Assembly (NCBI GenBank): GCA_023150835.1
Contig: JAKLKB010000020.1
Coordinates: 44,482-64,481, forward strand
Origin: Myxococcota bacterium
Lineage (GTDB): Bacteria > Myxococcota_C > UBA6777
DNA length: 20,000 bases
Direction of reading: 5' to 3'
The notes under the pieces are model-generated. The model saw nothing but the letters and a program-made list of their open reading frames with translations, was not told the DNA's origin and ran no database searches. How positions within the stretch are numbered: position 1 is the stretch's first letter; the number at the start of each line of letters is the position of its first letter. Shown in pieces: positions 1 to 17,000 of the stretch. A program made the position numbers and the translations under genes.

Positions 1-1034
1 TCTTGTGTCTCTGGGTCTTTGACTTCGACAAGCGCTTGCGCAGCATCAACCCGTGTATTGGGGTTGCTGTCTTTTAACAGACCTGCAAGCACACTTCCGC
101 CCTCGCGCCGACCGAGCCGACCGAGCGCATAACCCGCAGCGATCTGCACTTCTTTCGAGCCATCCTTGAGCAAGCCAACCAGTTTGTCTCTCGCGGATTT
201 ACCGCCAAGATCGCCAAGTGTCGTGGCTGCGATCTTGCGGGAGCTTGCAGTATCCGAAGACAAATCCGCAGTAAACAGCTTGATCCAGCTTTTATCGCCC
301 AATTGCTTGAGCGATTGCGCCAATTGAGCGCGCACACGGCGGTTGTTGTTGCTGGCCATCTGCTCGCGCAAAAACTCCGCCACACCGCGATCTTTGACCT
401 CGCCAAGAAAGCGAGCGCACATCAGCTTCGATCCGCCCGTTTCTTTTTGATAGCATGTTTGTAACGCTTCCATTCCGCCCTTGTCACGGAGTTGAGCAAG
501 CGCCAATGCCGCTTGGTAGCGCACAAAAGGACGACGCTCTTCGAGCAGCTTGCGCAACGGCTTCACGGCGCTCTTGTCGCCCAGTTCACCGAGTGCTTCG
601 GCGGCTTTCATGCGCGTCAAAAAGTTCGGCGAGGACAACAACGGCAGCAGTGCCTTCACCGCTTCTTTTTTCTTCATCTTGCCCAAAAACTCGGCGGTCA
701 CTTGTTGGCCTTTTCCATCCGAGCCCCCCAGCAGATCGCGGGTGTACGACCAAACCAGCTTGCCCAAGACTTCGGGGTCTTCGCTGTCGTTCATCGCCAC
801 CAACACTTCGTACGCACGCAGCGCCTTTTCCACTTGGCCGAGCTGCGCAAGCGCATCCACCCGCAGGGCCACAGCCTGTTTCATGTACTTGTCGAGCTGT
901 TTGAGCGCAGCTTTCGCTTGCCCTTTTTTGAGCTGTCCTTTGAGCGTGTCCAGTTCTCCCGCATGGGCCGGAACCCACGCGCACAAACCCCAAAGAATCC
1001 ATGTCGCAAAACCAATCGCGGTGTGTCTCTGCAT
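1..1034 (-). CDS. Exported HEAT (PBS-lyase-type) repeat protein, 3' end beyond the window
   Basis: Not in the ORF track because there is no stop in the window. Manual translation from ATG 1034 is open for 344 codons: MQRHTAIGFATWILWGLCAWVPAHA|GELD... (Sec signal, A-H-A cleavage), then HEAT-like units (EAVKALLPLLSSPNFLTRMKAAEALGELGD; SAVKPLRKLLEERRPFVRYQAALALAQLRD; ARDKLVGLLKDGSKEVQIAAGYALGRLG; VLAGLLKDSNPNTRVDAAQALVEVKD). SD AAGGAG at 1050-1045 overlaps the upstream gene's TAA. Confidence 0.9.
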   Translation of the reverse strand, partial: MQRHTAIGFATWILWGLCAWVPAHAGELDTLKGQLKKGQAKAALKQLDKYMKQAVALRVDALAQLGQVEKALRAYEVLVAMNDSEDPEVLGKLVWSYTRDLLGGSDGKGQQVTAEFLGKMKKKEAVKALLPLLSSPNFLTRMKAAEALGELGDKSAVKPLRKLLEERRPFVRYQAALALAQLRDKGGMEALQTCYQKETGGSKLMCARFLGEVKDRGVAEFLREQMASNNNRRVRAQLAQSLKQLGDKSWIKLFTADLSSDTASSRKIAATTLGDLGGKSARDKLVGLLKDGSKEVQIAAGYALGRLGRREGGSVLAGLLKDSNPNTRVDAAQALVEVKDPETQ

Positions 1035-1049
1035 CAAGTCTTGTCTCCT

Positions 1050-2018
1050 TTATGGTCTCAAGTGAACGGCGGGGAGATTGCCTTCTCTCGTTGTGGGATG
1101 CAAGGAGCAAGCTCCATGCGTCGAAAAAACGGATGCGGATCGTACAGATCGGGGAGTTTCTTTGAAGACGGGTGGAAGGGGATATCGGAACAAAGACAGC
1201 GAAGCGGCCTGCAAGTATTTGCGCGCAAAGTCATCAAGAAAGCCTTGCACGCTGCTTCCGACCTGCTGCACAAAAGCTTGCTCGAATGTGTTTCCAGTGC
1301 GCATCGACCGCAACAATCGGCTCACCCCTTCTTGCTTAATCCGTTGCTGAAGTTCATCAAACAGCCAGTGACCAAGGCTATACAGCTCGTTTTGATAAAA
1401 GCGCAACGCCTCCACAGATTCAAGCGCACGCCAAACCCGCTTGCCTTGGGGACTCGCAAAAAAAGAAGCCAAGCGCTCCACCGACAAACGGACATAACCT
1501 TGCTGCGCGGTCACAGAAGCCATTCCTTCCCGAAACCACAGGGGTATCGAGCGATTGTCCCAATCTTTTTGCTCGCAGCACATCTGAAACATCGCAACAT
1601 GCGCGATCTCGTGCGTCAACAGCTCTGTCAAAGGCCACTGATAAAACTGCCTGCGCCACGTACGAGGACTTTGCAACCAGATATCTCCATAACGCGCCCA
1701 AGCCCGTACCCATGGCAAACGAAGCTGCAACGCTTCCTCAAGCGACTGATGCGTCGGAAAGATCCGCAGATGCAGCGGAGCTTCTAAGGTCGTCCAACGC
1801 TGATTCTCTCGCAAAGCGTACAGTGTGGCTTTGAGCGTGTCCGAAACAACAGCGGCATCTCGCTCAAAAAACGAAAGACGCACCGAATTGGGAGCCTCAC
1901 GCGGAGTCGCTCGCACTTCCAGCGGAAAATCGGGGATGATCGCCTCACGATAACAACCCACCAGCCCCAGCACCCACCCCAAGCACCACAACAACAGCAT
2001 CCTCGCCTTTTTTTGCAT
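1050..2018 (-). CDS. Putative lipoprotein zinc metallopeptidase (clan MA/gluzincin, Peptidase_MA-like)
   Basis: Intact LTHEIAH (HEXXH, ~1599-1613) followed by IPLWFREGMA (third zinc ligand, P-x-W-F-x-E-G motif). Start moved from 2093 to ATG 2018, which has GGAG just upstream and gives a basic n-region, hydrophobic core and lipobox LVG|C (MQKKARMLLLWCLGWVLGLVGC). Confidence 0.85.
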   Translation of the reverse strand: MQKKARMLLLWCLGWVLGLVGCYREAIIPDFPLEVRATPREAPNSVRLSFFERDAAVVSDTLKATLYALRENQRWTTLEAPLHLRIFPTHQSLEEALQLRLPWVRAWARYGDIWLQSPRTWRRQFYQWPLTELLTHEIAHVAMFQMCCEQKDWDNRSIPLWFREGMASVTAQQGYVRLSVERLASFFASPQGKRVWRALESVEALRFYQNELYSLGHWLFDELQQRIKQEGVSRLLRSMRTGNTFEQAFVQQVGSSVQGFLDDFARKYLQAASLSLFRYPLPPVFKETPRSVRSASVFSTHGACSLHPTTREGNLPAVHLRP

Positions 2019-2111
2019 CCATCGCTCCAAAAAAATCACCCGACCCACATCCATCGGACCAACACAATATCGTCGACGGATGTGATGGGGCATTGCTTAG
2101 AAGCTGCGCGT

Positions 2112-3275
2112 CTAAAGCCCCCAAGAGACCGACAGGATCGGAACAATCGGGTCATTGGGGTTTAACATCTCTTGAAGATTCAAAAACACGCCAATCGAAA
2201 ACTGCCCAATGATCGAGAAAAAGCGCAGACCGAACCAAAAACTCAGCCGAAAGTCCGAAGTGAACGTGTTGTCATCAACTTTCGCTCCTTGGGGCAAAGC
2301 CACCTTCAACGAAACGCCCATCGCTCCGAACCCAAGGCTGAGATAATTCAAGTAAGGACGAGCTTGTCGGGGCATCAAAAATCGGTAAGATATCTCGGCT
2401 CCAAACAACAACGAGAGGTCGAGGTTTGTTTGAAAAGAAAACAGATCAAACCCAACGTAGGCCGAGATCAGCCACTGATCCCGAAACAAAAAATCAAGCC
2501 GAACTTCTTGACTTGTTGGCGTGATCGAATTGTTTTTGTCTGCGGCCTTGCTTCCGAGCGCAAACGAAAAGCGCGCCAAGAGATGTACTTCAAATTGAAA
2601 ATAAGGCCAACCCTCCCGTTTGGCGGGCTTGCTGTGAAAAAGCGACTCGATCAGATGCCTTCGTGCCACAAGGCCGATCGGATGGCGGCGTGGCCCAAGC
2701 TCCGTCATCACCCCGATCACACGGCCTTCTTCGTCCAACAAGGGCGCCCCCGCATACCCCCGCATCAACGGCATATTGACTTGCACGAAGTCCTTCGTGA
2801 CGCGCCCAATCGCACCTTGCACAAAACTCCAGCTCAAGGCCGTTTGCGTCAGCCTTTGCACCAACCCTTCGCTGGGAAAAGGATGTCCGACCGCACCCAC
2901 TTGGACGCCAACATCGACCTGTTCGACAGGCGAAAACACCAACGGTCGACCAGCCATCCGTCCCATAACACGCAAGATCGCTGTGTCGTGGGTCTTATTA
3001 AAAGCCCAGAGATCCGCACGAATCCATTGATGATCTTCTGCGTCTCGCTGGATCCAGATATCTCGACCGCATCCCGCAACGCTCACACTTGTCACGATAT
3101 GGTGACGATCAAATGCCAAAAACCCCGACCCTTTGCGCGTTCCGCAATGCACGATGTAGATCTGCGTCACGGTGGCCTTGTACACCCGCTGCCAACGCTT
3201 GTTCCCATACTCCATCGCAGGAGCCGTCATCGACAACCACACCGACGCCAACATCACCGAAACAACCGATGTCAT
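2112..3275 (-). CDS. Trypsin-like (S1/HtrA-type) protease-homolog domain, apparently inactive, fused to a predicted outer-membrane beta-barrel
   Basis: Signal-like N-terminus. S1C landmarks GSGF, IVTSVSV, HDTAILRV, VGAVGHP, GYAGAPLLDEEGRVIGV. The C-terminal ~165 aa has about eight amphipathic aromatic-rich strands ending ILSVSWGL. SD-like GGAAGG precedes ATG 3275. Confidence 0.8.
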   Translation of the reverse strand: MTSVVSVMLASVWLSMTAPAMEYGNKRWQRVYKATVTQIYIVHCGTRKGSGFLAFDRHHIVTSVSVAGCGRDIWIQRDAEDHQWIRADLWAFNKTHDTAILRVMGRMAGRPLVFSPVEQVDVGVQVGAVGHPFPSEGLVQRLTQTALSWSFVQGAIGRVTKDFVQVNMPLMRGYAGAPLLDEEGRVIGVMTELGPRRHPIGLVARRHLIESLFHSKPAKREGWPYFQFEVHLLARFSFALGSKAADKNNSITPTSQEVRLDFLFRDQWLISAYVGFDLFSFQTNLDLSLLFGAEISYRFLMPRQARPYLNYLSLGFGAMGVSLKVALPQGAKVDDNTFTSDFRLSFWFGLRFFSIIGQFSIGVFLNLQEMLNPNDPIVPILSVSWGL

Positions 3276-3407
3276 CGAGTAAACCTTCCATCAAACGAGG
3301 CTTTGTTCTCCATCGATGCCGCTTGTGGACAAAACCCCCCGCGTTCGCCCCGTTGCGAGCGACAGGATCGTTGTCTTGAAAAACCATCGTTCTCTTCGCC
3401 AAATTTA

Positions 3408-3456
3408 TGGGGTCAAGGGGCAAAAGTCCCTTGTGGAGTGTGGGGTTTCACCCCAC
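3408..3456 (+). repeat. REP-like twin GC-rich hairpin element in the divergent intergenic region
   Basis: CAAGGGGC-AAAA-GTCCCTTG (3414-3433, 8-bp stem with one G-T) and GTGGGGT-TTC-ACCCCAC (3440-3456, perfect 7-bp stem). G-run-rich, against the C-rich bias of this strand. Single copy in this window. Confidence 0.5.
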
Positions 3457-3566
3457 CAAAACCATCCACATCGCGCAAGTTCCATAACCAAAAAAGAACG
3501 CCGCCGATGCGTGGCGTTGCAGACTACCACAATCGCCTTCAAAAGAAAGCGGATGTTTCGATCCAG

Positions 3567-3596
3567 TTGACATCGGTACGTGTCTTTTGCAAAGCT
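3567..3596 (+). promoter_or_regulatory. Possible sigma70-type promoter for the CHASE2 gene
   Basis: Perfect TTGACA at 3567-3572. The -10 is weak (TGc-AAAGCT, 3588-3596, 18-nt spacer). Confidence 0.25.
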
Positions 3597-3684
3597 GCGC
3601 GAGGGTTCAACGTCCGTCCTTTGCGCAGACAAGAACCCAACATGCACCTGCACAACCTCGAAAGCCCAAGCGGTAGGGGCCATC

Positions 3685-6108
3685 ATGAGATCATCGTTCT
3701 TTGTTAAGCCATTCTTTGTCGCACTCCTCGTCATCTTGCTGTTGATCGTCGCCAAGTTCGTGATCGGCACAGATTACCTCGCAGACTTCGAACAACAACA
3801 ACTTCGTCAACAATTTCTCGGACGCACCCAAACTCCTGTCCGCTTTCCCAAAGACATCGTACTTGTCGAGATCAACGAAGCCAACACAGAAGCCAGCTTG
3901 CGCTGGCCTTGGGATCCCGGCAAAGTCGCGACCCTGATCAAAACACTGCGCGAAGCCAAAGCCAAAGTAATCGCGCTCTCTCTACCGTTGGTTTCGATGA
4001 GTCGAGCGTCCTACATACAAAGCCTAAAAGACGCCCTCGAACAACTCAACAAAGCCTTCCCCCCGCTTGAAAAGCTCGATCCCAACAAGACCAAAGGCAT
4101 GAACCGCCGCCAAAAAGCAGACTTCCAAAAAAAGCGTGCAAAACAAGAAGCCGAAGAAGAGCGCGTTAAAGAACTCCGCAAAAAACTAGAAGAACTCACC
4201 AAAACGGACGGATACGGCGAGCTTATCAAAGAAGTCCAAGCCACCAAAAACCTTGTGATCGGTTACTACTACTACAAAACTGAAGACAACATCCCCGGGG
4301 TAGAAGCCACTTATCTCAAACAAAAACAGCAGATACTCCACGAACAAAAGCACAACAAAGACAAGAAAAAAACCAAAAAAGACGATCGACTTGTCGATCT
4401 CTATCGCCTCGATCCACCGCAGTTTTTGCTTGGGGCGACCGTCGAGCCCGCCACCGAAGTGGCCGCTTTGCGTGAACAAGGCGATCTCGCTCGTCACCTC
4501 CGCTATCACGGCTTCCTCAACCTCACAGAGAACCCTGACAATCCCCTTTACCAAGTCCCCTTCTTTGCCAAAAACGAACAGAAGATCTATCCGAGCTTTG
4601 CACTTGCCACGTACATCGCAGCCCACCCAGACAGCCCGCCCAAACGCCTCGTTGCAAGCAGCGGATACACGGGCCTTGAGATCAACGTCAAAGGAACCAA
4701 GAAGCTTCTGCCCTTGGATCGCGACGGCCTATACCGCTTGAATTATTACGGGCCTGTTCAAAGCATCCCCCGCAATCAGCGCGCTCTTGCAAGCACGGTG
4801 ACAGAAACCAAAGGCTTTGCCGACGGATTCTTTGAAGGCAAGATCGTATTCGTCGGGATCAATCACCCACAAAAAGGGTTACGCATCCAAACTCCCTTCC
4901 CACGATCTTTTTCGGAAGTCGAACTCCACGCGATGGTCCTTGCAAACCTGCTCCAAGGAAACCCGCTGCTCCAAGGTTCCGCGATGGTCGAGATCGCTGG
5001 GTTGCTGATCTTTGGCCTACTGTTGGGCTTTTTGCTCAGCCTATTTCGGTACCTCCTTGGTTTCATCGCAACGATCGGCCTCAGCGTTACCTTGATCTTT
5101 TTGGATCGCTTCTACTTGTTCCCCGACAACGTCTGGTATCAATGGAGCTACACCATCCTCGGACTGGGCTTGATCTACCTCAGCGTCAGTCTAGTTCGCC
5201 GCCTCACAACCGATCGTGATCGCAGCCTCACCATCGGCCGCTTTCGTGAACACGTCCACCCAGACGACCTCGCCAAGATCCTCAAAGATCCAAAAAGCCT
5301 CCCCACCCAAGGAACATGGCGCCCGATCGCCTTCCTTTCCGCCTATGCCCATCCCGTCGGAGACAACCTCAGCGAAGAAAAAAATGCAGCCCGCATCAGC
5401 GAGATGTTCGCACACCTCGTCACCCCCATGGGCGAAGCCATCCGCAACGCACGCGGGATCGTGACCCAGATATCCAGCCATAATTGCCAAGGACTTTTTA
5501 ACGCTCCCCTTCCCCTCGGCAACTACGAAGAACAAGCCGCACTCGCCGCCCTCCAGATCCAATTTGCTTGGAATGACTTTGTTCACAAATACTGGATCGC
5601 CGAAGGGCTGTCGGAACCCAACTTTGGGATCGGACTGGATAGCGGATCGGCAGTAATCGGGAATTTTGGAGGCGAAAGCAACTACATCTTTACAGCAGTG
5701 GGCAAGCCTGTGACCTACAGCGAGATCCTACAAGACCTGACCAGCACCTACAAATGCCAAGTGCTGGTGTCCGAGAATATGCAGCAAAAGCTCCAAGCAA
5801 CCGGGCAATTTGTCATCCGCGAACTCGATTGGGTGCAGATCAGCGATGCACACCCCAACATGACGCTGTACGAACTGCTCGGAAAAGCCCCCGCAAGCAG
5901 CCCGCTCCCAGAAGCCGTCGAATGGTATCAACAAGGTCTTTCTTACTACCGCTCGCGAAACTTCCAAGAAGCCCAACGCTACTTCGAAGAGATCTTGCAA
6001 CGCCGCCCCCAAGATGGCCCTGCTCAAGTGATGTTGGCACGCTGCAAACAATACCTCTCCTATCCCCCCAACTTTAACTGGGACGGGACTTGGAAGCTCA
6101 AAGCCTGA
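3685..6108 (+). CDS. CHASE2-domain membrane sensor with a degenerate class III adenylate/guanylate cyclase domain and C-terminal TPR
   Basis: One N-terminal TM. CHASE2 motifs DIVLVEINE, RWPWD, AKVIAL, GFLN, YPSFALA, GKIVFVG, TPF..SEVELHAMVLANLLQG. Three further TMs. Cyclase scaffold (LFNAP, GIGLDSGSAVIGNFG, QVLVSE, RELD, LYELL) and the TPR/WDG tail typical of this architecture. Likely start ATG 3685 (AGGGG upstream; MRSSFF...) rather than the ORF-track start 3580. Confidence 0.9.
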   Translation: MRSSFFVKPFFVALLVILLLIVAKFVIGTDYLADFEQQQLRQQFLGRTQTPVRFPKDIVLVEINEANTEASLRWPWDPGKVATLIKTLREAKAKVIALSLPLVSMSRASYIQSLKDALEQLNKAFPPLEKLDPNKTKGMNRRQKADFQKKRAKQEAEEERVKELRKKLEELTKTDGYGELIKEVQATKNLVIGYYYYKTEDNIPGVEATYLKQKQQILHEQKHNKDKKKTKKDDRLVDLYRLDPPQFLLGATVEPATEVAALREQGDLARHLRYHGFLNLTENPDNPLYQVPFFAKNEQKIYPSFALATYIAAHPDSPPKRLVASSGYTGLEINVKGTKKLLPLDRDGLYRLNYYGPVQSIPRNQRALASTVTETKGFADGFFEGKIVFVGINHPQKGLRIQTPFPRSFSEVELHAMVLANLLQGNPLLQGSAMVEIAGLLIFGLLLGFLLSLFRYLLGFIATIGLSVTLIFLDRFYLFPDNVWYQWSYTILGLGLIYLSVSLVRRLTTDRDRSLTIGRFREHVHPDDLAKILKDPKSLPTQGTWRPIAFLSAYAHPVGDNLSEEKNAARISEMFAHLVTPMGEAIRNARGIVTQISSHNCQGLFNAPLPLGNYEEQAALAALQIQFAWNDFVHKYWIAEGLSEPNFGIGLDSGSAVIGNFGGESNYIFTAVGKPVTYSEILQDLTSTYKCQVLVSENMQQKLQATGQFVIRELDWVQISDAHPNMTLYELLGKAPASSPLPEAVEWYQQGLSYYRSRNFQEAQRYFEEILQRRPQDGPAQVMLARCKQYLSYPPNFNWDGTWKLKA

Positions 6109-6154
6109 CCTTCCACCTCCGCCCCTTCACCCCAAACTCTCATGGGGACGTACC

Positions 6155-6850
6155 ATGCGTACAAACACCAGTTCTTGGCTTTCCCGATCTCTCGTATACA
6201 TCGGGCTATGCGGCGCTTTACTGCTTTCCAATTGCGAGTGTAGCGCTCCCGTCCGCCCTCAAGACCGCTTCAACAACGGACTGGTGTGTACAGGTGTAAG
6301 CGGAGACAACCAATGCAAGGGACTTTTCTGTTGGCGATTCAAAAAAGATCCCCCCAACGGCGATGGCGTCTGCACCACAGTCTGCACCAACGAAGAAGAA
6401 GCTTGTGCGAACGGCGGTATCTGCCGTAAAGGCTTCCAGCCCGAGTCGCCTGATCGCGGATACTGCGTCGTCCCCTGCACCTCCGAAAAAGATTGCGCCC
6501 CCACACTTGGCTGCCAACAAATCAACAACCAAGGCGACAAATACTGCTGGCGAACAGACCCCACCACCAAACAAAACACCAACGGCAGCAAATGCACCGA
6601 TGCCCGCGAGTGCTTGGGTGGACACTGCATCAAAGGCTTGTTTGAAAGCGGGTTGGCTCTATGCAGCGAGACCTGTACGAAACTCGGCGATCCGTGCAAA
6701 CATCGCGGTGTTTGCGCTATCCAAGACACACTCGGCGGCACAGCAACACTGTTTTGCTTGGTCGAATGCCAGCAAAACAGCGACTGTTCTGACAACCTTT
6801 CCTGCAACGCTTCCCCAAGCAAGCGCAAGTACTGCGGCCTCGCCCCTTAA
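6155..6850 (+). CDS. Cysteine-rich lipoprotein with two tandem 12-Cys modules
   Basis: Signal peptide with lipobox-like LLLSN|C-E-C. Two homologous modules each start NGxxC, end KYC and carry 12 Cys. GGGGA precedes the ATG; 46-nt gap after the upstream gene. Confidence 0.85.
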   Translation: MRTNTSSWLSRSLVYIGLCGALLLSNCECSAPVRPQDRFNNGLVCTGVSGDNQCKGLFCWRFKKDPPNGDGVCTTVCTNEEEACANGGICRKGFQPESPDRGYCVVPCTSEKDCAPTLGCQQINNQGDKYCWRTDPTTKQNTNGSKCTDARECLGGHCIKGLFESGLALCSETCTKLGDPCKHRGVCAIQDTLGGTATLFCLVECQQNSDCSDNLSCNASPSKRKYCGLAP

Positions 6851-6884
6851 ACAGACTCTTCTGCGGCCTCGCCCCTTGAACAGA
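6832..6884 (+). repeat. 24-bp direct repeat (period 29) duplicating the 3' end of the Cys-rich gene
   Basis: CTGCGGCCTCGCCCCTTAAACAGA (6832-6855) vs CTGCGGCCTCGCCCCTTGAACAGA (6861-6884), 23/24 identical. Confidence 0.9.
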
Positions 6885-6897
6885 TCCGTCTTTGCTC

Positions 6898-6926
6898 TTG
6901 ACGTCCGACGCGGATACTCGTAGAGT
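6898..6926 (+). promoter_or_regulatory. Putative sigma70 promoter for the TPR lipoprotein gene
   Basis: TTGACG (6898-6903), 17-nt spacer, TAGAGT (6921-6926). SD GAGAGG at 6950-6955 precedes ATG 6961. Confidence 0.5.
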
Positions 6927-6960
6927 CAAGCGGTCTTTTTGCTAGGATAGAGAGGTTTGT

Positions 6961-7746
6961 ATGCTTTGGACAGATCGTATCCGTTGTTGGCTTCCTTTCT
7001 TTGGCGTGTGGATGCTCAGCGTTGCCCTCCTTCAAGGCTGCCCCAACGCCAAGATCCACGAACGTGCCAAGTTTCTACATGACCGAGGACTTCTACTGCT
7101 TCAACAAGACAAATTGGAACTTGCAGAAGAAAGCTTCAAAGCAGCCCTTGAGTACGACGCCCGCTTTAAACAGGCCCTCAATAGCCTCGGTCTGCTCGCC
7201 GTCCGTAAAGGCAAACTCAAAAAAGCCGAAACCCTCTTCAAACAAGCCCTTGCGATCGACTCCAATTTCGCCAACGCACGCGGTAACCTTGGGTATGTGT
7301 ACTTCCAATACAAAGACTACCCCAAATCCATCCAGCTCAATCTCTCGGCTTTACAGATCGAACCCGCCCTTCACGACGCACGCTACAACCTCTCGCTTGC
7401 TTATTTTTATACCCGCGACTTCAAAAACGCACGCAAACACCTCGTCCGATTGTTGCTCTACGATCCGAACCACGTCAACGCACACTTTGTCCTGAGTTCC
7501 ATCGAGTTCGAGCGGAAAAACTACAAGCAAGCCGCTCAACACGCCATCCGCGCCGCTCAGATCGATCGCAACCACAAACGCGCTTACGAAGTCCTTTGCA
7601 AATCCTTCTATCACCTCGGTCAATACAAGATCTCCTGCCAACAGTGCAAGCAGATCGTTCGCATCGATCCCGAAGACCCCATCGGCAAAACACTCGTCGA
7701 TGTCGTCCACAAAAAGCTCCAAGAAACTGGGGAATCTTGCCAATAA
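6961..7746 (+). CDS. TPR-repeat lipoprotein (Tgl/PilF-like architecture, orthology not established)
   Basis: Lipobox LLQG|C, then about six canonical 34-aa TPRs (ALNSLGLL..., ARGNLGYVY..., ARYNLSLAY..., AHFVLSSI...). 261 aa with a good SD. Confidence 0.88.
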   Translation: MLWTDRIRCWLPFFGVWMLSVALLQGCPNAKIHERAKFLHDRGLLLLQQDKLELAEESFKAALEYDARFKQALNSLGLLAVRKGKLKKAETLFKQALAIDSNFANARGNLGYVYFQYKDYPKSIQLNLSALQIEPALHDARYNLSLAYFYTRDFKNARKHLVRLLLYDPNHVNAHFVLSSIEFERKNYKQAAQHAIRAAQIDRNHKRAYEVLCKSFYHLGQYKISCQQCKQIVRIDPEDPIGKTLVDVVHKKLQETGESCQ

Positions 7747-8037
7747 ACCTTTGTTATCCGCTGATTTCCTTTGGTATGTATGTCGTTGTTGTGTCTCTCT
7801 CTCTCGAAAACGTGGTTGCCTTTCCTCGAAGGCCTGTGCTAATAGAAAGGCCCAACATTTTCGTCTGTGCGGACTTCTCATACAAAGCGCGAACGTCTCT
7901 GTGAGGAAATCAAACTACACCCAAAGCCTTCTTCATCAAAGACCTCACGCAACGCATGGTAGCATTCGTTTTTTTTGTGGTTGGATACTGAAACGCGAGT
8001 GAGCATTGAAACTTCAGCACGCAGGAGCGGTGAGTCT

Positions 8038-11000
8038 ATGTCGGTAGAAGAAATTCAGAATTATTTGCGGATCCTAGAGGCCGTTCCAACGAACGTGCCT
8101 GCTTTCGAAGCCCTCAAGCAGATCTACACAGAACACCAACGTTGGGAAGAACTGGCCCAACTCGTAGAAGACCGTGCGGAACGCTTGCCTGATCGCAGTC
8201 AAGCCCCTGCGCTTTATCTACAAGCGGCCAACACTTGGTTCCACAAGGAGCAAAACACCGAACGCGCCAAAAAGACCATCACCAAAGTGTTGGAGTTGAT
8301 CCCCAACGAACGCAACGCCCTCGCTCTCTGGCGCGAACTCGCCACTTTTGAAGGGGACTTTGCAACCGCGATCAAGATCTTGCGCCAAGAGATCCAGATC
8401 ACCGAAGACGCCCGCGAAAAAAGCAAGCGTTTTGTGGATATCGCCAAGATCTTCGAAGAACACATGGACAACCAAGAACACGCTGCGATGGCCTACCATC
8501 AAGCCTTCTTGCAAGACCCCGAGAATTTGGGGCCGATGGAGCAAGCGCTTCGACTCTACCGCAGCCGAGGCGATTGGCAACGTGTGATCGCAGTCCTGCG
8601 AGCGCGGCTCGAAAAAGTCTCCGAAGCCTCGAACAAAGCGCGCCTGATGTTCCAAATCGGCCAAATCTTTATCCAACATCTTGATGAAGGCAAAACTCCC
8701 GAAGGACTCGCCAAAGCCGCTCAACTTTTCCGCGAAGCCCTTAACCTTGATCCCGATCTCGATGACTTTGACAACGCACTCGAACTCTACAAAGACAACA
8801 AAGAGTGGTCTCAAGTCACCGCACTCTTGCGCGCAAAACTCGAGGTTGTCACCGAAAACACCAAAAAAGCGCGGCTGCTGCTTGAGCTTGGAAACGTCAT
8901 TCTTCAACACCTCGAAGAAGGACAAACCCCCGAAGGTCAACAAAAAGCCTCGCAATTCTTTCAAAAAGCCCTTGAGTTCGACCCCAGCCTCAACGAAGCC
9001 AAAGAAGCCATCGAAGAACTTTCCTACGCAACGGAAGATTGGTCTTCTCTGCTCAAGCGTTTGAAGAAAGACATCCGTGACGCGGGCAAAGACGAAGATC
9101 GCGCCGCCTTCTTGAACTACAAGATCGCAGAAGGCTATCTCCTCCGAGAAGACAAACCTGCTTACGCTGTCCGTTATTGCAAACAAGCCCTCGAACTCCA
9201 ACCCAACCACACCAAGTCTCAAGACCTGTTGCAGCGCTTGTACGCGGATTTGGAACGATGGGAAGCCTTGGCGGACTTCTTTAACGATTGCACCAAAACG
9301 GCCCTTGATGCCCCGGCAAAAGTCAAGTGGCTCAAAAAACTCGCTCGCCTTTACCGCGAACAAACCAAAGAACGCGAACGCGAGATCGAAACCCTTGAAC
9401 GCATCCTTGATATCCTTCCCACCGAGCGCGAAACCCTCCAACACCTCGAGAACATCTACCGCGACAACGGCCAATACAGCCGCGCACTCGAAGTGATGGA
9501 CAAGCGTCTCAAAACCTTTGAAGAATCCGCAGCGAAAAAAACCCTGCTCTACGAGATGGCCACCCTCGCCAACAAGGAACTCCAAGACTCAACGCGAGCC
9601 GCCGGATACTACGAGCGGATCTTGTCTCTTGATCCCGACGAGATGGACGCGATCGATGCGTTGCTGCCGCTATATGAAGCCGAAGCCCGTTGGGAAAACC
9701 TGATCCAAGGACTCAAGCGAAAGCTCGAACGCACCGAAGATCGGCACGCTCGCGCAACCATGCTGACACGTGTCGGCGACATCTACGCGCAACGCCTTGC
9801 TCTCTCCAAAGAAGCCTTCGATGCCTACACACAAGCCCTTCGTGAAAACCCCCAAGACAGCGATCTGACCCAAAAACTCGAAGCCCTCGCACGTCAGATC
9901 GGTAACTGGGAAGAGATGGTCGCGCTCTACCGCAACACCTTGGAAAGCGCAAACGATCCTGCCGATCAAGCCGCCCTCTACTTCCGCATCGGCGACATCT
10001 ACGAACGCGAACTCCAAGATGTCGAGCAAGCCAAAGCATCCTACGAAGAGGCTCTCGAACGCGCCCCACAACTCGGCGCAATGAACGCCCTTCAACGCCT
10101 CTATCGCCAAAGCGAAGACTGGACCTCCTTGGCAGAGCTTCTCCAAGAAAAGTCCAAAAACGACAACCTCGATGAAGACCAACGCATCGAAGTCTTCGAA
10201 GAACTCGCTCGCATTCAACTCAACTACATCGACGATGCCGACGGTGCAGCCGAGACTTACGAAAAGCTGCTCGACGCAAGCCCTTCGTATGGCCCAGCCC
10301 TCGAAGCCTTGGAGCGTGTCTACAAACAAAACGAAAATTGGGCCAAACTGCGTGGTGTCTACCAGCGCCGCGTGGACAACCCCAACAGCGAGTCCGAACT
10401 CAAATCGACGCTACATATCCTCGGTAGCCTTTTGATCGAACAGCTCGATGCTTTCGAAGATGCCGTCCAAGTCTACCAACAATTGCGCGTCCTTGATCCC
10501 AACGACTTGAGCATCTTGACCCGACTCGAAGGTCTCTATCGCGACTTGGGCCAATGGGAACAATGGGTGGACACTGCGCGCCAACGCGCTGAAAGTATCC
10601 GTCGCCCCGAGCAAAAGAAAGAAGTCTTGCTGGAGATCGCCAAGATCCAAGAAGAAGAACTCGATGATTCTGTCGGAGCGATCGCTGTTTTGCGCGAACT
10701 TCACGAGATCGACAGCCAAGATATCAAGATCCTCGATGAACTTGAGCGACTTCTCGAAGTCGAAGACGATAAAGCCGGTCAGTTGGAGATCCTTCGCAAA
10801 AAGGTGAACCTCCAACAAAATGCCAACGAGAAAAAAGTCCTGCTCTTCCGCGTCGCAGACCTCCACCGTGCGCTTGATAACGAAAGCGATATGGCCGAAG
10901 CCTACCGCGAGATCTTGGATATCGATCCCCGCGACCTTCGATCCTTGCGCTCCCTCCAAGCCTACAACCAACTCCAAGGCGATCACGAAGGCGTCCTCGA

Positions 11001-14000
11001 TCTCTTGCTGCGCGAACGCGATATCGTCACCGAAGACGCCGATCGCAGCCGCCTCACTCAACGCATTGCTCAACTTCAAGCAAACTTGGGCCGTTACGAA
11101 GACGCGATCATCGAATATCGCCAGATCCTCGCCCAAAACAACAACGACAACCAAGCCCGCACGGCGCTGGAAGAGATCGCAACCAAACACGCTGGCTGGC
11201 GCGTTGAAGCCCTCCAAGTCCTCGAACCGATCTACCGCGCAGCCCAAGACTGGGAAGCCTTGGTCAAGGCACTCGAAGCTCGCTTCCAAGTGGTGCATGA
11301 CAAAGCACAACGCCTCGATATGGCCCGTGAACTCGAAGAGATCTATCGCCGCCTGAGTGACGATGAAAAAGCTTTCTATTGGAGTTGCCAACTCCTACGC
11401 GAAGACTTCGCGGATACCGAGATGCGCGAACGTGTCGAGATGATGGCCGATGAGATGGAGCGTTGGGACGAATTGCTCGTAGTCTACGAAGATATCGTTC
11501 GCAGCTTTGTTGATCGCCAACAGATCGTCGAAACCTACCTGTTTATCGCACGCAATTATCAAGATCGCCTCAGCCAACCCGAAAATGCCCTGCGTAACTA
11601 TCGCCGCGTGTTGGACTACGATTCCAATAACCCCGAAGCCATCGACGCGCTCGAAGAACTGTATCGTGCGCTCGGACAATGGCGCGATCTGATCGATATC
11701 TTGCGTATGCGCGTCGAGATGACCGCCGCCGTCGACGAAAAGAAAGAACTCCTGTTTGAAGTCGCCGATCTATGGGAAGACAAACTCCAAGATCCCCCCG
11801 AAGCCATCCAAGTCTTCAACGATATCTTGGAACTTCAAAACAACAACCTGACCGCGATCCGTCGTCTTGCTGCGTTGTATGAGCGAGAGTCCCGATACAC
11901 CGACCTCGCAGAAACATGGGAAAAAGAACTCTCCCTACTCGACAACGAAGAAGAACTTCTTTCCTTGCGCTTCAACCTTGGGCAACTGTATGCGGATCAT
12001 CTCAACCGCATCGAAGACTCCCTCAAGATGATGCAGCAAGTCCTCGAAGTGGATCCCGAGCACCAAGAAGCCATCCAGCGCGTCCATGCTCTTCGCGAAG
12101 AAGACGCTTACCGCTTGATCTGCGCCCGCATCTTGGAGCCGATCTATCTCCACCAAGAAAACTATCCCGAACTCAAAGCCATCTACAAGATCCAACTCGA
12201 AGACGCTTCACAAAACGCAAACGACCGTCGCAAGGCCCTGATGCGCCTTGGCCAGTTGCACGAAGAAAAGCTCGGCGAATTCCGCGAGGCTTTTGACCGC
12301 TACCTCCAAGTGTTCAAAGAAACCCCCGGCCAACACGGTACCCGAAAAGCCCTGTTGCGTATGAGCGAAAAGCTCGATGCTTGGCGCGAATTGGCTCTGA
12401 ACTTTGAAAACGGTGTCGATGCTTGCGAAGACTCCGAAGAAAAGATCCAAATCCACCTCGATTTGGCGCGGATCTACCGCGAACGCCTCCACGATCCAGA
12501 TCGCGGAATGAATCACGACCGCCGTGTCGTGGACGATCTTGATTCCAAAAACCTCCAAGCCATCGAAGCCTTGGAAGACTTTTATCAAGAGCGCGAAAAC
12601 TGGCATTCGCTGATCGACATCCTCTTCCAAAAAGAACAAGCCCTCCACGATGAAGTCCTCAAAAAGGGCGTGTTCAATCAGATCGCCAATATCTATGAGA
12701 ACCAACTCTCCGACAAATACCAAGCGATCTTGATCTTGCGCCAATACCTCAGCCGACTTGAAACCCAAGATCCCGGCCCTGCCCCTGTTGAAATCGCCTT
12801 GCGCGAAGCAAAAGAGCGCGAAACCAAGCTCCAACAGGAAAACCAAGAACTGATCGATGCCGTCGAGATGGCTCGCGAACAGCTTTCCAGCCTCGAAAAC
12901 CAAGCCGAAGAGGCCGAAGCTTCGCTCAAAGAGTACCGTGACATCGTCGCAGAATCCATGCGCACCCCCGAAGAAGACGCCGAAGTCGAGCGCACTGAGG
13001 CCGCATGGAAACAAACGCAAGCCGCGCTTGCAAAAGCCGAAGAATCGGCGGCTGCACGCATCGCACATGCCAACGCGCTCGCTGCTGAACTTCAATCTCT
13101 CGAAGAAGCCGCTGAACCCGATGTAGACGCCATCGCAGTCAAAACAGGCGAAGTGGCCGATGCCACCGAAGCTGTGGAAGCTGCCGATCACCAGATCGAA
13201 GAAGCCCGATACATCGCCCAAGCCGCACGCACCGCCTACGAAGACGCTCAAACCGCAAAAGCCGCAGCATCCGCAGCCGGCCCCAGTTCGGATCAAGCGT
13301 CCGAACTCAAACGTCTTGAATCGATGCACCGAATGGTTCAGCAAGCCCAAGAAGCCAAAGCTGCCGAACTGCGCGAGATGCAAGAACAACTCGATCAAGC
13401 AGAAGTCAAAGAAGCCGAAGCTGCCGAAGCCGTCCGCACCGCCGAACAAGCCATGGAAGCAGCGGCGGAGCAGATCCAAACTATCCTTGAGCAACGCACC
13501 GCCTTCAAACTCGACACCATCCAAGAACTCGCTCGGCTCTTTGAAGAAGAAGAGCGTTGGGCTGATCTCGTCGAGATCTTGGAAAAAGAAGTCGAATTGC
13601 TCGCAGAACCCGAAGAAGCCCTGCGCCTGCGCTTCCGCATCGCTCAGCTCTGGCAGGATCAATTGCACGATGTCCCCCGTTCTATCCGCCTTTATCGTGA
13701 GATCCTCAACGACGATCCCGACTTTGAATCCGCCCTCCAAGTCATGGAAGAACTCAGCGAAAATGAAGATTACCAACTCATGGTCGCCGAATCGCTCGAA
13801 AGCTATTTCCGCGAAGGCCGCCAAGATTGGACTCGCTTGATCGAGATGGTCGAGATCCAACTCAACCACACCGCTGAAAGCGAAAAACGCTTGGCCTTCC
13901 TCAAAGAGATCGTGGCTCTCTACGAACTCGAACTCGACAACACCGATATGGCCTTCGTCTATCTGTGCCGTGCTTTCCGCGAAGCCCCCACCGATCGCGA

Positions 14001-17000
14001 TGTCATCTCCGAACTCGAACGCCTCGCCGAAGAAAACGATGCGTGGGAAGAACTCGTCGGTGTCTACGAAGACAAGGTCGAAGACATCGGCGATATCCAA
14101 CTCGCCCTGCGGATGTACCTCAAGATCGCCAACATCTACGACGAAGCGCTTCAAGATCCCGAAGAAGCCATCAAAAACTACTGCAACGCCCTGAAACTCG
14201 ACGAGCACAACAACGTCGCTCTCAACGCCTTGGATCGCCTCTATCGCCAAGAGCGCCAATGGGAACAACTCGTCGATATCCTTCAACGCAAGGTCTACAC
14301 CAGCGCAGACACCCGCGAACAAGTCACCTTGCTTTCTCGCGTCGCGCAGATCTGGGAACGTGAACTCGAAAACCCCAGCGAGGCCATCGGCGCATACCGC
14401 CGTATCCTCGAAGTCGACAGCCAAAACGCAAACGCCCTCTCCTCGCTCCAACGGCTCTACGAAGAAGACCAACAATGGGAAAACCTCTTCGAGATCTGCC
14501 AACGAAAAGTCGGCCTTGTCGACGCCGTCTCCGAACGCGCCAAGCTCACCAAACAAATGGCGCAGATCTGTGCCCTACATCTCGGTCGAACTGCCGAAGC
14601 CATCGAGCTTCACGAAAGTGTCCTAGCGACCTCCGAGCGCGACGAAGAGAGCTTGACAGCCCTCCACACCCTCTATGAACAAACCGAACGATGGGATGCG
14701 TTGGTCAACATCGTGCAGCGTCTTCTCAAAGTCGTGTCGGGTGTGGAAAAGAAAAAAGACTTTTACCGAACCCTCGGCCGTACCTACGGCGAACGCCTGT
14801 TTGAAGAAGAAAAAGCCATTGAAGGCTGGCAAAAAGTCCTTGAACTCGATCCCAAAGATCGAGATGCCCTCGAAGCCCTCCAACGTATCTACGCCAACCG
14901 CGAAGAGTGGCAAAACCTCGTGGGGATCTTGCGCCGCCTGATCCCGCTTCAAACCGAACCCGCCCAAACCTTGGAGATCTACCTGCGCCTTGCCTCGATC
15001 TACCAAGAAAAAATGAACCGCCTTGAAGACGCGATCGCCTCTTGGCGCCGCGTCTTGGAGATCGATCCAACCCACTGGCAAGCCCTTGATACGTTGGAAA
15101 ATCTGTTGATCGAGCGCAACGATTGGCGCGCAGTCCTCGGCATCTTGGAAAAGAAGGAAGCTGTGGTTCAAGACAACTTCTCCAAGATCGAACTCTTGAT
15201 GCGCGCCGCACAGATCTGCCAAGAGCGCCTGCGCGAGATCAACCGCTCCACACCTTACTACGAACGCATCCTCGAGTTCGATCCCACTTACCTCCGAGCC
15301 GTCGAAGCCTTGGGCTCGATCTACACGCGCAACCAAGATTGGAAAAAGCTGGTCAACATCTTCAACATCGAAGTCAACTTGTTTGAAGAGAAAAGCCAAA
15401 AGCTTGAAAAGCTGAAAGCCATCGCAGAGTTGTACGAAAATCGCCTCTTCAACAAGGCCGAATCGTTCAACACGCTGTTGCGCGCCTTCCAGATCGATCC
15501 TGAACAAGACGAGATCCGCACGCGCTTGGAACGTATCGCGGACGAAACCGACCGTTGGAACGACCTTGTTGGCGTCTTCGCCCAAGAGATCGATCGCATC
15601 GAATTCTTTGACACCAAGATCGCTCTCCTGATGCGCATCGGCCACATCTACCACGTCGAGCTTCGCGAAAGCGAACCCGCGATCGTGGCCTACCAAAAGA
15701 TCATGCTGATCGATGAAAACCATCGCCAAAGCATTGAGGCGCTCGAAGAACTCTACGACGAAACTGAGCGCTGGCCCGAACTGATCGCCATATACAACAA
15801 AAAGCTCCAGATCACGCACGAGATCGAAGAACAAAAAGATCTGCTCTTCCGCATCGCCGAGTTGCAAGAGTACCAACAAGGCGATCGCGTCGCAGCCATC
15901 GAGGCTTACCGTCAGATCCAAGCCCTCGATCCAAGCGATCGCGCTGCACTCGAAGCTCTCGAAAAACTCTACCGCGAAGAACAACGCTGGCCCGAACTGA
16001 TCGACGTGTTGAATCGACGCATCCAACAAAGCACCGATCAAAAACAGATCTTCCGTATGAAGTTCGAGGTCGGTTCGATCTACGCCAACAAGCTCGAAGA
16101 ACTCAATCTTGCGGTCGATGCTTATCGCGACGTTCTCAGCATGGACCCCAACAACCTCGACGCGATGCACGCGCTTGAGCGGCTGTACACCGATCTCGAA
16201 GACTGGAATTCGCTTCTTCAGATCCTCCATCGCGAGCTTGAGATCAGTACCCGCCCCGAAGAAAAAGTCCCGCTGTATGGCCGCATGGGATTGATTTGGG
16301 AAGAAGAACTCGGTCAGCCCGGTCGCGCCATCGAATGCTTGACCTACATCCTCGAAGTCGATCGCTGGAATATCGGTGCCATCAAAGATCTCGAACGGCT
16401 TTATCGCCAAGCCCAAGAATGGCAACGCTTGATCGAGATCTACGAACAACACATCCGCGCCATCAACGACCTCGAAGAGATGGCGATGCTCTACTACGAA
16501 GTGGGTTCGATCTACGAAACCTACATGGGCGATGTAGACAAAGCCACAACCTACTACCTCCGCGTTCTTGATGCGGATCCGTACTACCAACCCGCACTCT
16601 CCTCGCTTGGAAAGATCTACGAATCCGTCGGAAACTGGCCCAAATGCATCGAGATGAGAGAGCGCGAAGCCAAGGTCGCCAACGAACCCGAGCGCCTCGT
16701 CGAAGTGTACTTCAGCATCGGCAAGATCTACGAAGAGCGCCTCGTTCAAATCGACCGCGCCAAAGAAAGCTACCGCAAAGCACTCGAGATCCAACCCAAC
16801 TATCTCCCCGCTCTGCGCGCACTCAAGGTGATCCACTTCTTGCAACGCGACTGGGAAGGCGTGATCCGACTTGCCCACATGCAAGAGCAATTCACCGATG
16901 CACCCGAAGAAAAAGCGATCCTCTTCTGTGAAATCGGAAAGATCTCCCGAGAACGCCTCTCCAATATGCCCAACGCCATCCAAAGCTACGCCCAAGCCCT

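Follow-up and report, generated by a model that had tools for sequence, protein, structure and literature searches.

Can a bacterial receptor cyclase be kept once its catalytic chemistry has gone, and which of its parts would then carry the signal onwards? Receptor cyclases are usually read as signal in and cyclic AMP (cAMP) or cyclic GMP (cGMP) out. The question is raised by a gene on the forward strand, at 3685..6108, of a 20,000-nucleotide stretch of the genome of an uncultured Myxococcota bacterium (assembly GCA_023150835.1, contig JAKLKB010000020.1), here called the window, whose coordinates are used throughout. The gene encodes a CHASE2 receptor pseudo-cyclase of 807 amino acids (aa) plus stop, and all residue numbers refer to this 807-aa protein. 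Its cytoplasmic part is a class III cyclase-homology domain (CHD) that has lost the canonical catalytic set. To judge from its sequence, the receptor belongs to a conserved clade that represents the pseudoenzyme form of a known family of receptor cyclases.

Catalytic residues and fold of the cyclase-homology domain

At the five catalytic sites the window protein carries none of the canonical residues. The first metal-binding Asp is replaced by Tyr554 (TAT, 5344..5346, +), at a position where Asp is found in 139/140 canonical sequences. The substrate-binding Lys and the second metal-binding Asp, present in 130/140 and 140/140 of these sequences, respectively, are replaced by Gln595 (CAG, 5467) and His599 (CAT, 5479), both within 5467..5481 (+). 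The transition-state Asn and Arg, each present in 140/140, give way to Thr677 (ACC, 5713) and Ile681 (ATC, 5725) within 5713..5727 (+). Read as motifs, the canonical FSDIrgF has become LSAYAHPV, lDKyiGDaimA has become VTQISSHNCQG, and GDaVNlaSRLEG has become GKPVTYSEILQD. Further downstream, VKGK is replaced by ISDA (5839..5850, +), with Ala in place of a Lys that is conserved in 121/140 canonical sequences.

The initial annotation had proposed precisely these substitutions, and they are confirmed by the codons together with three alignments for the five catalytic residues, and by codons 5839-5850 together with the family alignment for VKGK. The three alignments are independent of one another and place the residues in an identical register. 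In a phmmer search of the PDB, residues 505-687 aligned with the cyclase part of 6FHT (Cya2) at E 1.1e-6, with further matches to CyaB (3R5G), Cya2 (2W01) and CyaC (1WC0/1WC1). The second alignment, made with MAFFT, comprised 153 family members, and the third was to a custom profile hidden Markov model derived from 140 canonical relatives, against which the window protein scored 195 bits (E 6e-62) with a posterior that was mostly '*'. A shift of register restoring the Asp, Asn or Arg, which the initial annotation had named as a finding that would overturn it, was looked for and rejected, as none of the three brings back the Asp, Lys, Asp, Asn or Arg.

The significance of these changes depends on how uniform the family is otherwise. 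Among the 150 best matches of the exhaustive search described below, 141 lie outside the clade of the window protein, and the complete D-K-D-N-R set is intact in 129 of these. Both metal Asp residues plus the Asn and Arg are found in 139/141, including ten relatives that have Glu, Gln or Arg at the Lys site with the other four sites canonical. The deviating relatives are only two, namely P0095, with Asn at metal site 1, and P0139, which reads E-R-N-P-R. Since the relatives are almost uniformly canonical, the complete loss in the window protein is a sharp departure, far from what chance would produce. P0139 itself represents a second, independent and apparently recent degeneration in the CHASE2-cyclase family, in which PF00211 (Guanylate_cyc) still scores 51.7 bits. 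Another variation within the family is the combination of Glu at the Lys site with Gly at the partner site, the signature of Cya2-type guanylate cyclases, which was seen in P0045, P0061, P0074, P0097, P0111, P0113 and P0142; these seven form one branch with support 98.

In a class III dimer, one chain contributes the pair of metal-binding Asp residues, and its partner the Lys, Asn and Arg. Because both residue sets are lost, the window chain can supply neither half-site. The earlier proposal that it could act in neither the C1 nor the C2 role thus stands, on the five-residue loss taken together with this established dimer layout, and the protein presumably makes no cyclic nucleotide.

The cyclase fold has been retained, as had also been proposed, according to structure prediction. 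The AlphaFold2 model of residues 505-807, based on a 69-row alignment, has a mean predicted local distance difference test (pLDDT) value of 95.9 and a predicted template-modelling (TM) score of 0.93. A Foldseek search of the PDB with this model returned 193 matches at E<=0.001, the top ones being all class III cyclases and the best being 6FHT (E 7e-15), with an identity to Cya2 of ~20%. Target-normalised TM scores were 0.83 for Cya2 (2W01), 0.80 for CyaC (1WC1) and 0.84 for Rv1625c (7YZ9), within a range of 0.80-0.85 that includes RhGC, and the ESM Atlas features of the protein ('Guanylate_cyc-like') point in the same direction. The Foldseek search with the full-length model returned cyclase matches only, and none for CHASE2. 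At the level of family profiles, Pfam gave no PF00211 row for the window protein even at E<=1 (gathering threshold 21.9 bits). Nor was this cut-off reached by any of the 12 clade members, whose best score was 20.4 bits versus 76.7 in a canonical relative.

The pseudo-cyclase clade and the selection acting on it

A degenerate domain in one genome may be an accident, and the distribution of the loss among relatives is therefore informative. A word-indexed search recovered only two close relatives, one 87% identical and the other, recorded as 'CHASE2 domain-containing protein [Myxococcales bacterium]', 75% identical. Below this pair, 17/20 other matches were canonical CHASE2 + PF00211 proteins at ~25% identity. 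An exhaustive search of 1.84 billion representatives yielded 20,232 matches at E<=0.001, of which the best 150 were analysed. At the top of this search stand seven full-length representatives with 58, 41, 39, 37, 40, 34 and 35% identity (1005-429 bits) and two fragments, and after these nine the scores fall from 429 to 215 bits. The resulting clade comprises 12 sequences, down to 34% identity, all of them devoid of the catalytic set. None of the five canonical residues is found in 10/12 members, and the other two keep one each, the second Asp in P0029 and the Arg in P0031. Intact orthologs with a loss restricted to the window protein, which would have spoken against the initial annotation, are thus not seen, the whole clade being without the set.

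The clade is recovered in two phylogenies. In a FastTree phylogeny of 153 sequences, 12/12 clade members fall on one branch (Shimodaira-Hasegawa (SH)-like support 100, stem 0.81). An IQ-TREE analysis of the CHASE2, transmembrane and linker columns alone again placed 10/10 full-length members on one branch (SH approximate likelihood-ratio test 100). This second tree had 46 rows, with 34 random canonical sequences plus P0095 and P0139, the two fragments and the long-branch P0118 being left out. The possibility that convergent degeneration of the CHD had merely simulated a clade was rejected, given its recovery from N-terminal columns. Sequence comparison indicates that this clade of dead cyclase domains is old and does not amount to a single degenerate gene, and a single loss of catalysis at its base would be the simplest history, the root not having been inferred.

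Where a clade member has a named source, it is a metagenome-assembled genome (MAG) of Myxococcales or Myxococcota, or 'Deltaproteobacteria bacterium', and one clade cluster occurs on 74 contigs, marine (Tara) data included; for ten canonical relatives, hardly any organism names were obtained from their clusters. Three members carry the IMG label 'adenylate cyclase', which is almost certainly wrong. In a survey of the literature no description was found of CHASE2 proteins with a dead cyclase domain; subscription journals were mostly uncovered, so that this does not prove absence.

The residues that have taken the place of the catalytic ones differ from member to member. Across the clade, metal site 1 is occupied by Y, Q, H, K, S or R, the Lys site by Q, Y, T, G, E, S or H, metal site 2 by H, Q, D or L, the Asn site by T, S, E, D, V or A, and the Arg site by I, L, Q, M, F, R or T, so the catalytic sites have not been re-used. 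This bears on the idea that the protein is still an enzyme, be it a cyclase with non-canonical or migrated residues or a catalyst of new chemistry on the cyclase fold. Migrated catalytic residues are indeed found in some pseudoenzymes, as reported in PMC10211241, and a few polar residues are conserved specifically in the clade (Asp528, Asn606, Gln624, Glu640, Asp652 and Ser679). Nevertheless, these are scattered over different secondary-structure elements, no conserved acidic pair stands in place of the metal ligands, and the five catalytic sites vary freely, which makes an enzymatic role very unlikely.

Freedom at the catalytic columns does not extend to the domain as a whole. For estimates of selection, the window gene was compared by the Nei-Gojobori method with L001, a locus in the MAG Myxococcota bacterium KLAP109 whose product is 96% identical at the aa level. 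The ratio of non-synonymous to synonymous change (omega, dN/dS) is 0.056 for the whole gene (dS 0.36), 0.059 for CHASE2, 0.13 for the transmembrane region, 0.018 for the tail and 0.036 for the dead CHD, in which 7.5 non-synonymous differences stand against 45.5 synonymous ones (dS 0.47). By this comparison of sequences, the dead CHD is under strong purifying selection. Its retention over longer times is argued from the clade, throughout which the domain remains open and foldable. A decaying gene, or a functionless remnant of a domain, might have been suspected from the loss of all catalytic residues and the failure of Pfam to recognise the domain. Nonetheless, the 807-aa frame is open in both the window and L001, the fold is predicted very confidently, and the dead architecture has been retained in the clade down to 34% identity. 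Pseudogene decay was accordingly rejected on the omega of 0.036 and the clade-wide retention, and it is hardly credible. With the fold kept, the catalytic residues gone and purifying selection in force, the cytoplasmic domain has what defines a pseudoenzyme, and a true pseudoenzyme is the best explanation of its sequence.

Where the constraint sits within the protein was examined by mean pairwise identity among eight clade members and 40 randomly drawn active relatives. CHASE2 has a value of 0.37 in the clade and 0.33 in active relatives, and the transmembrane helices 0.34 and 0.21, respectively. The linker, at 0.25, is the least conserved part of the clade proteins (0.42 in active relatives), and the CHD falls from 0.51 in active relatives to 0.38 in the clade. 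The C-terminal tail moves in the opposite direction, from 0.33 to 0.53, and is the most conserved part of the clade. Constraint has in this way been shifted from the CHD and its dimer interface, which rank highest in active relatives, to the tail. Within the clade CHD, the core of the fold is kept (GNfGg, GLDxG, FNaP, PvxxSexL, RElDwV and YELLG), while the catalytic columns are free.

Dimer interface, former active site and C-terminal tail

If the CHD no longer catalyses, its contribution could lie in pairing, in ligand binding or in carrying other parts of the protein. Regarding pairing, residues 505-807 were modelled as two copies with ESMFold2, which gave a score of 0.82, while the highest score among three controls was 0.00. 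On a calibration that is rough only, since a custom alignment was used, this mark was reached by 20/30 proteins solved as same-chain pairs and by 1/23 solved as single chains. Three runs share at least 93% of their contacts, with a partner pLDDT of at least 88. The predicted interface is the classical one, formed by helix 1, the beta2-beta3 arm and beta4-beta5 with helix 4, and it holds 6/7 former active-site positions and no residue of the tail. Mean conservation was then compared by region. Interface columns, the catalytic ones excluded, score 0.72 in active relatives and 0.52 in the clade; the rest of the CHD scores 0.59 and 0.57, the seven positions of the old cleft 0.98 and 0.38, and the tail 0.44 and 0.68, respectively.

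A preserved interface would be expected if the protein acted as a dominant-negative or modulatory subunit, its dead CHD pairing with an active CHASE2 cyclase paralogue and titrating the cyclic-nucleotide output. The class III fold and the confidently predicted head-to-tail geometry would allow such pairing, and a chain lacking both half-sites would, from its residues, poison any partner. In addition, mammalian adenylyl cyclase (AC C1/C2) and soluble guanylate cyclase (sGC alpha/beta) are as a rule heterodimers in which one site is degenerate; an incomplete cyclase chain is kept there for pairing and the non-catalytic site is pseudo-symmetric, as described in PMC6005667. In those pairs each chain keeps one half-site, yielding one working site, whereas the window chain has lost both, so a dimer containing it would be inactive at a site that needs it. 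Against this role, the clade interface has drifted to a level not above that of the remaining domain, which makes an obligate fit to the interface of an active cyclase unlikely, and the linker is the most relaxed part of the clade proteins. Furthermore, neither the 20-kb window nor a further 10 kb upstream in L001 contains a cyclase gene; HEAT-repeat, peptidase and Mla-type ABC transporter genes are found there instead. Dominant-negative pairing is consequently regarded as improbable. Of the two mechanisms that the initial annotation had left side by side, it appears the less likely one, and signalling by protein interaction seems to fit better because conservation within the clade is highest in the tail.

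The former active site may, on the other hand, have become a sensor that binds a small molecule, such as ATP, GTP or a cyclic nucleotide, but does not turn it over, much as cyclic di-GMP is bound by degenerate GGDEF and EAL domains. The predicted fold still forms a cleft, His599 is conserved in 7/10 clade members, and the window protein retains Thr670 at the second specificity position (the T of YT.xGD), as do 129/140 canonical sequences; the same position varies inside the clade, with Thr in 4/11. In sGC and AC, moreover, regulators have been described to bind at the pseudo-symmetric site (PMC6005667). However, the seven cleft positions are the least conserved CHD columns of the clade, which argues against the old cleft being a conserved ligand pocket, as a ligand kept throughout the clade should have left its pocket conserved. 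The phosphate-binding loop after strand 1, which has a one-residue insertion, is not conserved either. A ligand-binding role is therefore held to be quite improbable.

The region in which the clade is more constrained than its active relatives is the tail, a three-helix TPR-like segment (aa 736-807, 5890..6105, +) that ends in YPPNFNWDGTWK. Its helices span aa 741-756, 760-773 and 778-792 in the AlphaFold2 model, and Pfam recognises one TPR_2 repeat by a marginal pass (28.5 bits versus a cut-off of 27). Clade members approximate to the consensus wY.qGL..YR.RnFqeA.ryFqEiLr.RP.DGPA..ML.R.q.y..YPPsFqWDG.WK, and Tyr748, Phe760, Gly778, Met783 and Phe797 are invariant among them. This segment did not arise with the clade but belongs to the whole CHASE2-cyclase family, as WDG occurs in 106/141 active relatives, and active relatives, the Cya2-like Glu-Gly group included, end in the same PPxxDWDG motif. 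In Cya2, the C-terminal extension strongly raises cyclase activity and affects the region of the linker and cyclase-transducer element (CTE), and it is described as structurally uncharacterised, all according to the study from which 6FHT comes (PMC5995499). The stimulation of Cya2 by its extension implies that the tail was already a functional element in the family. Since it takes no part in the predicted dimer interface and is under tighter constraint in the clade than among active relatives, the tail is the best candidate for an output surface, which would act via a putative protein partner.

Taken together, we favour, with moderate confidence, the reading that the window protein is an old receptor pseudo-cyclase, with the CHD as a true pseudoenzyme and scaffold and the tail as its likely output surface. 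According to this model, the CHD would serve as a structural platform, probably still as a head-to-tail dimer, which would be moved by input from CHASE2 and the transmembrane helices. A hypothetical protein partner would bind the TPR-like tail, and possibly the adjacent CHD surface, and so read the output. Co-directional genes downstream are candidates for this partner by position only.

Several considerations weigh against this model. The partner of the tail, which is proposed by analogy, is itself hypothetical. The dimer score may reflect the memory that the model has of solved cyclase homodimers, and thus likeness rather than binding. Conservation of the clade interface does not exceed that of the remaining CHD (0.52 vs 0.57, permutation p 0.93), and dimerisation itself, to go by these columns, may not be strongly selected in the clade. 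The recurrence of His at the second metal site in 7/10 members could hint at a residual site. The dN/dS values come from one close pair and speak for recent selection. The clade sample is small, with 12 sequences of which two are fragments, and its Myxococcota range rests on four named records. Finally, synteny is available from one 96%-identical relative only and is uninformative on a functional linkage with the neighbouring genes.

Receptor architecture, neighbouring genes and known systems

Regarding the limits of the gene, the open reading frame (ORF) in frame with the cyclase-like segment at 5310-5880 extends over 3580..6108 (+). The true start is the ATG at 3685, as the same ORF start is found in L001 and the database entries have 807 aa. 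An upstream start at the GTG of 3580, which would add an in-frame extension of 35 codons (3580..3684), was rejected, as a 1-nucleotide indel just upstream in L001 breaks the frame. Some gene callers predict 842 aa via this extension, as in the database member P0175. A scan of 3200-8100 for promoters and terminators found none above shuffled expectation, and an NCBIfam scan of the 807-aa protein gave sub-threshold noise only.

In the full-length AlphaFold2 model (pLDDT 89.3), all features lie in order along the forward strand. A hydrophobic N-terminal transmembrane helix (aa 9-27, 3709..3765) precedes the periplasmic CHASE2 domain (aa 28-445, 3766..5019; PF05226, 103.1 bits, cut-off 26.3), which contains K/E-rich helical inserts at aa 107-124, 141-173, 176-186 and 205-224. 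Three transmembrane helices follow (aa 433-453, 456-481 and 488-about 508; 4981..5208), and then cytoplasmic linker helices in the place of the CTE (aa 509-540, 5209..5304; model helices 488-520 and 526-534). The degenerate class III CHD, supported by the PDB matches, AlphaFold2 and Foldseek, occupies aa 541-735 (5305..5889) and leads into the tail. One transmembrane helix before CHASE2 and three after it is the layout of a CHASE2 sensor. The order CHASE2, transmembrane helices, linker, CHD and tail is Cya2-like, and collinear with that of 17 CHASE2 + PF00211 proteins and the 141 relatives. The view that the protein is a CHASE2 receptor that has kept its transmembrane helices and TPR tail is, accordingly, upheld by the Pfam matches and the four helices of the model. 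The long K/E-rich helical inserts are a feature of the pseudo-cyclase clade, being absent from active relatives, and the Pfam scores of CHASE2 are ~100-125 bits in the clade versus 187-205 in P0033 (canonical) and P0139 (independently degenerate).

The closest known protein is the CHASE2 guanylate cyclase Cya2 of Synechocystis (2W01, 6FHT), which is the best sequence and fold match of the window protein in the PDB and for which the same succession of CHASE2, transmembrane helices, linker/CTE, CHD and C-terminal extension has been described (PMC5995499, PMC6005667). The two differ in that Cya2 produces cGMP and its catalytic set is complete, whereas the window protein has 0/5 residues of the set, ~20% identity and no PF00211 match. 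CyaD1, CyaD2 and CyaK of Sinorhizobium meliloti, compared here by description, are likewise CHASE2 receptors with a cytoplasmic class III domain (PMC13001267), but these are catalytically active and supply the regulator Clr with cAMP. For S. meliloti it has been reported that its CHASE2 cyclases perceive a protein signal from outside with the aid of the outer-membrane protein NsrA (PMC13001267). In view of this precedent, envelope co-factors for the window receptor would not be far-fetched, although they are speculation.

The genes around the receptor were therefore inspected as well. Downstream on the same strand, at 6155..6850 (+) and 47 bp from the pseudo-cyclase, lies a gene for a secreted-looking Cys-rich protein of 231 aa (27 Cys), whose N-terminus resembles a signal peptide or that of a lipoprotein and for which neither Pfam nor NCBIfam gave a match. 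It is the fastest-evolving member of the cluster, with 87.5% aa identity to L001 compared with 96-99% for its neighbours. Next comes, at 6961..7746 (+), a 261-aa TPR protein with a lipobox-like LLQGC (by eye), 99.2% identical to the L001 copy, whose resemblance to PrsT, GltE, Tgl and PilW, all TPR lipoproteins, stays below threshold. The next gene, at 7975..19182 (+), encodes a 3735-aa giant composed almost wholly of TPR-like repeats, without a signal peptide by eye and predicted to be cytoplasmic, which contains a 247-aa Ala/Glu-rich segment (aa 1598-1844, 12766..13506). Long ORFs on the opposite strand of this gene (e.g., 14623..19161, 1512 aa) look like artefacts of composition. The order of the three downstream genes is conserved in L001, the one locus found in a scan of genome contigs. 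A divergent cluster upstream (3..3275, -) encodes a trypsin-like protease (2112..3275), a Peptidase_MA-like protein (1050..2093) and a HEAT-repeat protein (3..1037), and further upstream in L001 (L001 1..8376) lies a Mla-type ABC transporter set with MlaE, an ATPase and two MlaD-domain proteins.

Non-catalytic output is already known for GGDEF domains and pseudokinases, and class III cyclase-like proteins without canonical catalytic residues have been reported from mycobacteria, in work on M. tuberculosis cyclases; these are, to our knowledge, of other architectures and have no CHASE2. A case of output by protein binding is GdpS of Staphylococcus aureus, which binds and positions DgkB independently of its catalytic residues (PMC11962490). 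By analogy, the window protein would resemble GdpS as a membrane protein with a cytoplasmic domain of the nucleotide-cyclase type and a proposed output through protein binding. GdpS differs from it in belonging to the GGDEF family and not to the class III CHDs, in having no CHASE2 sensor and in having a known partner.

A more specific scenario, which is rather doubtful, extends this proposal to a Myxococcota family of CHASE2 pseudo-cyclases in which the CHD would be a pure conformational scaffold. The tail would recruit a cytoplasmic partner, perhaps the TPR giant encoded downstream, upon an envelope signal, in the sensing of which the Cys-rich and the TPR lipoprotein-like proteins encoded nearby would take part. 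Were this to hold, partner binding may also be a function of the tail in active CHASE2 cyclases, Cya2 among them, in addition to internal activation.

For the family as a whole, a clade that has long retained the entire receptor without the chemistry would show that, besides catalysis, the class III fold is capable of a further output that is non-catalytic. It also constitutes a natural separation-of-function mutant for the C-terminal extension of CHASE2 cyclases, which is poorly understood, and may be useful for asking how CHASE2 signals cross the membrane. In the Myxococcota, counts of cyclases that rely on architecture or loose homology will be inflated by receptors of this kind.

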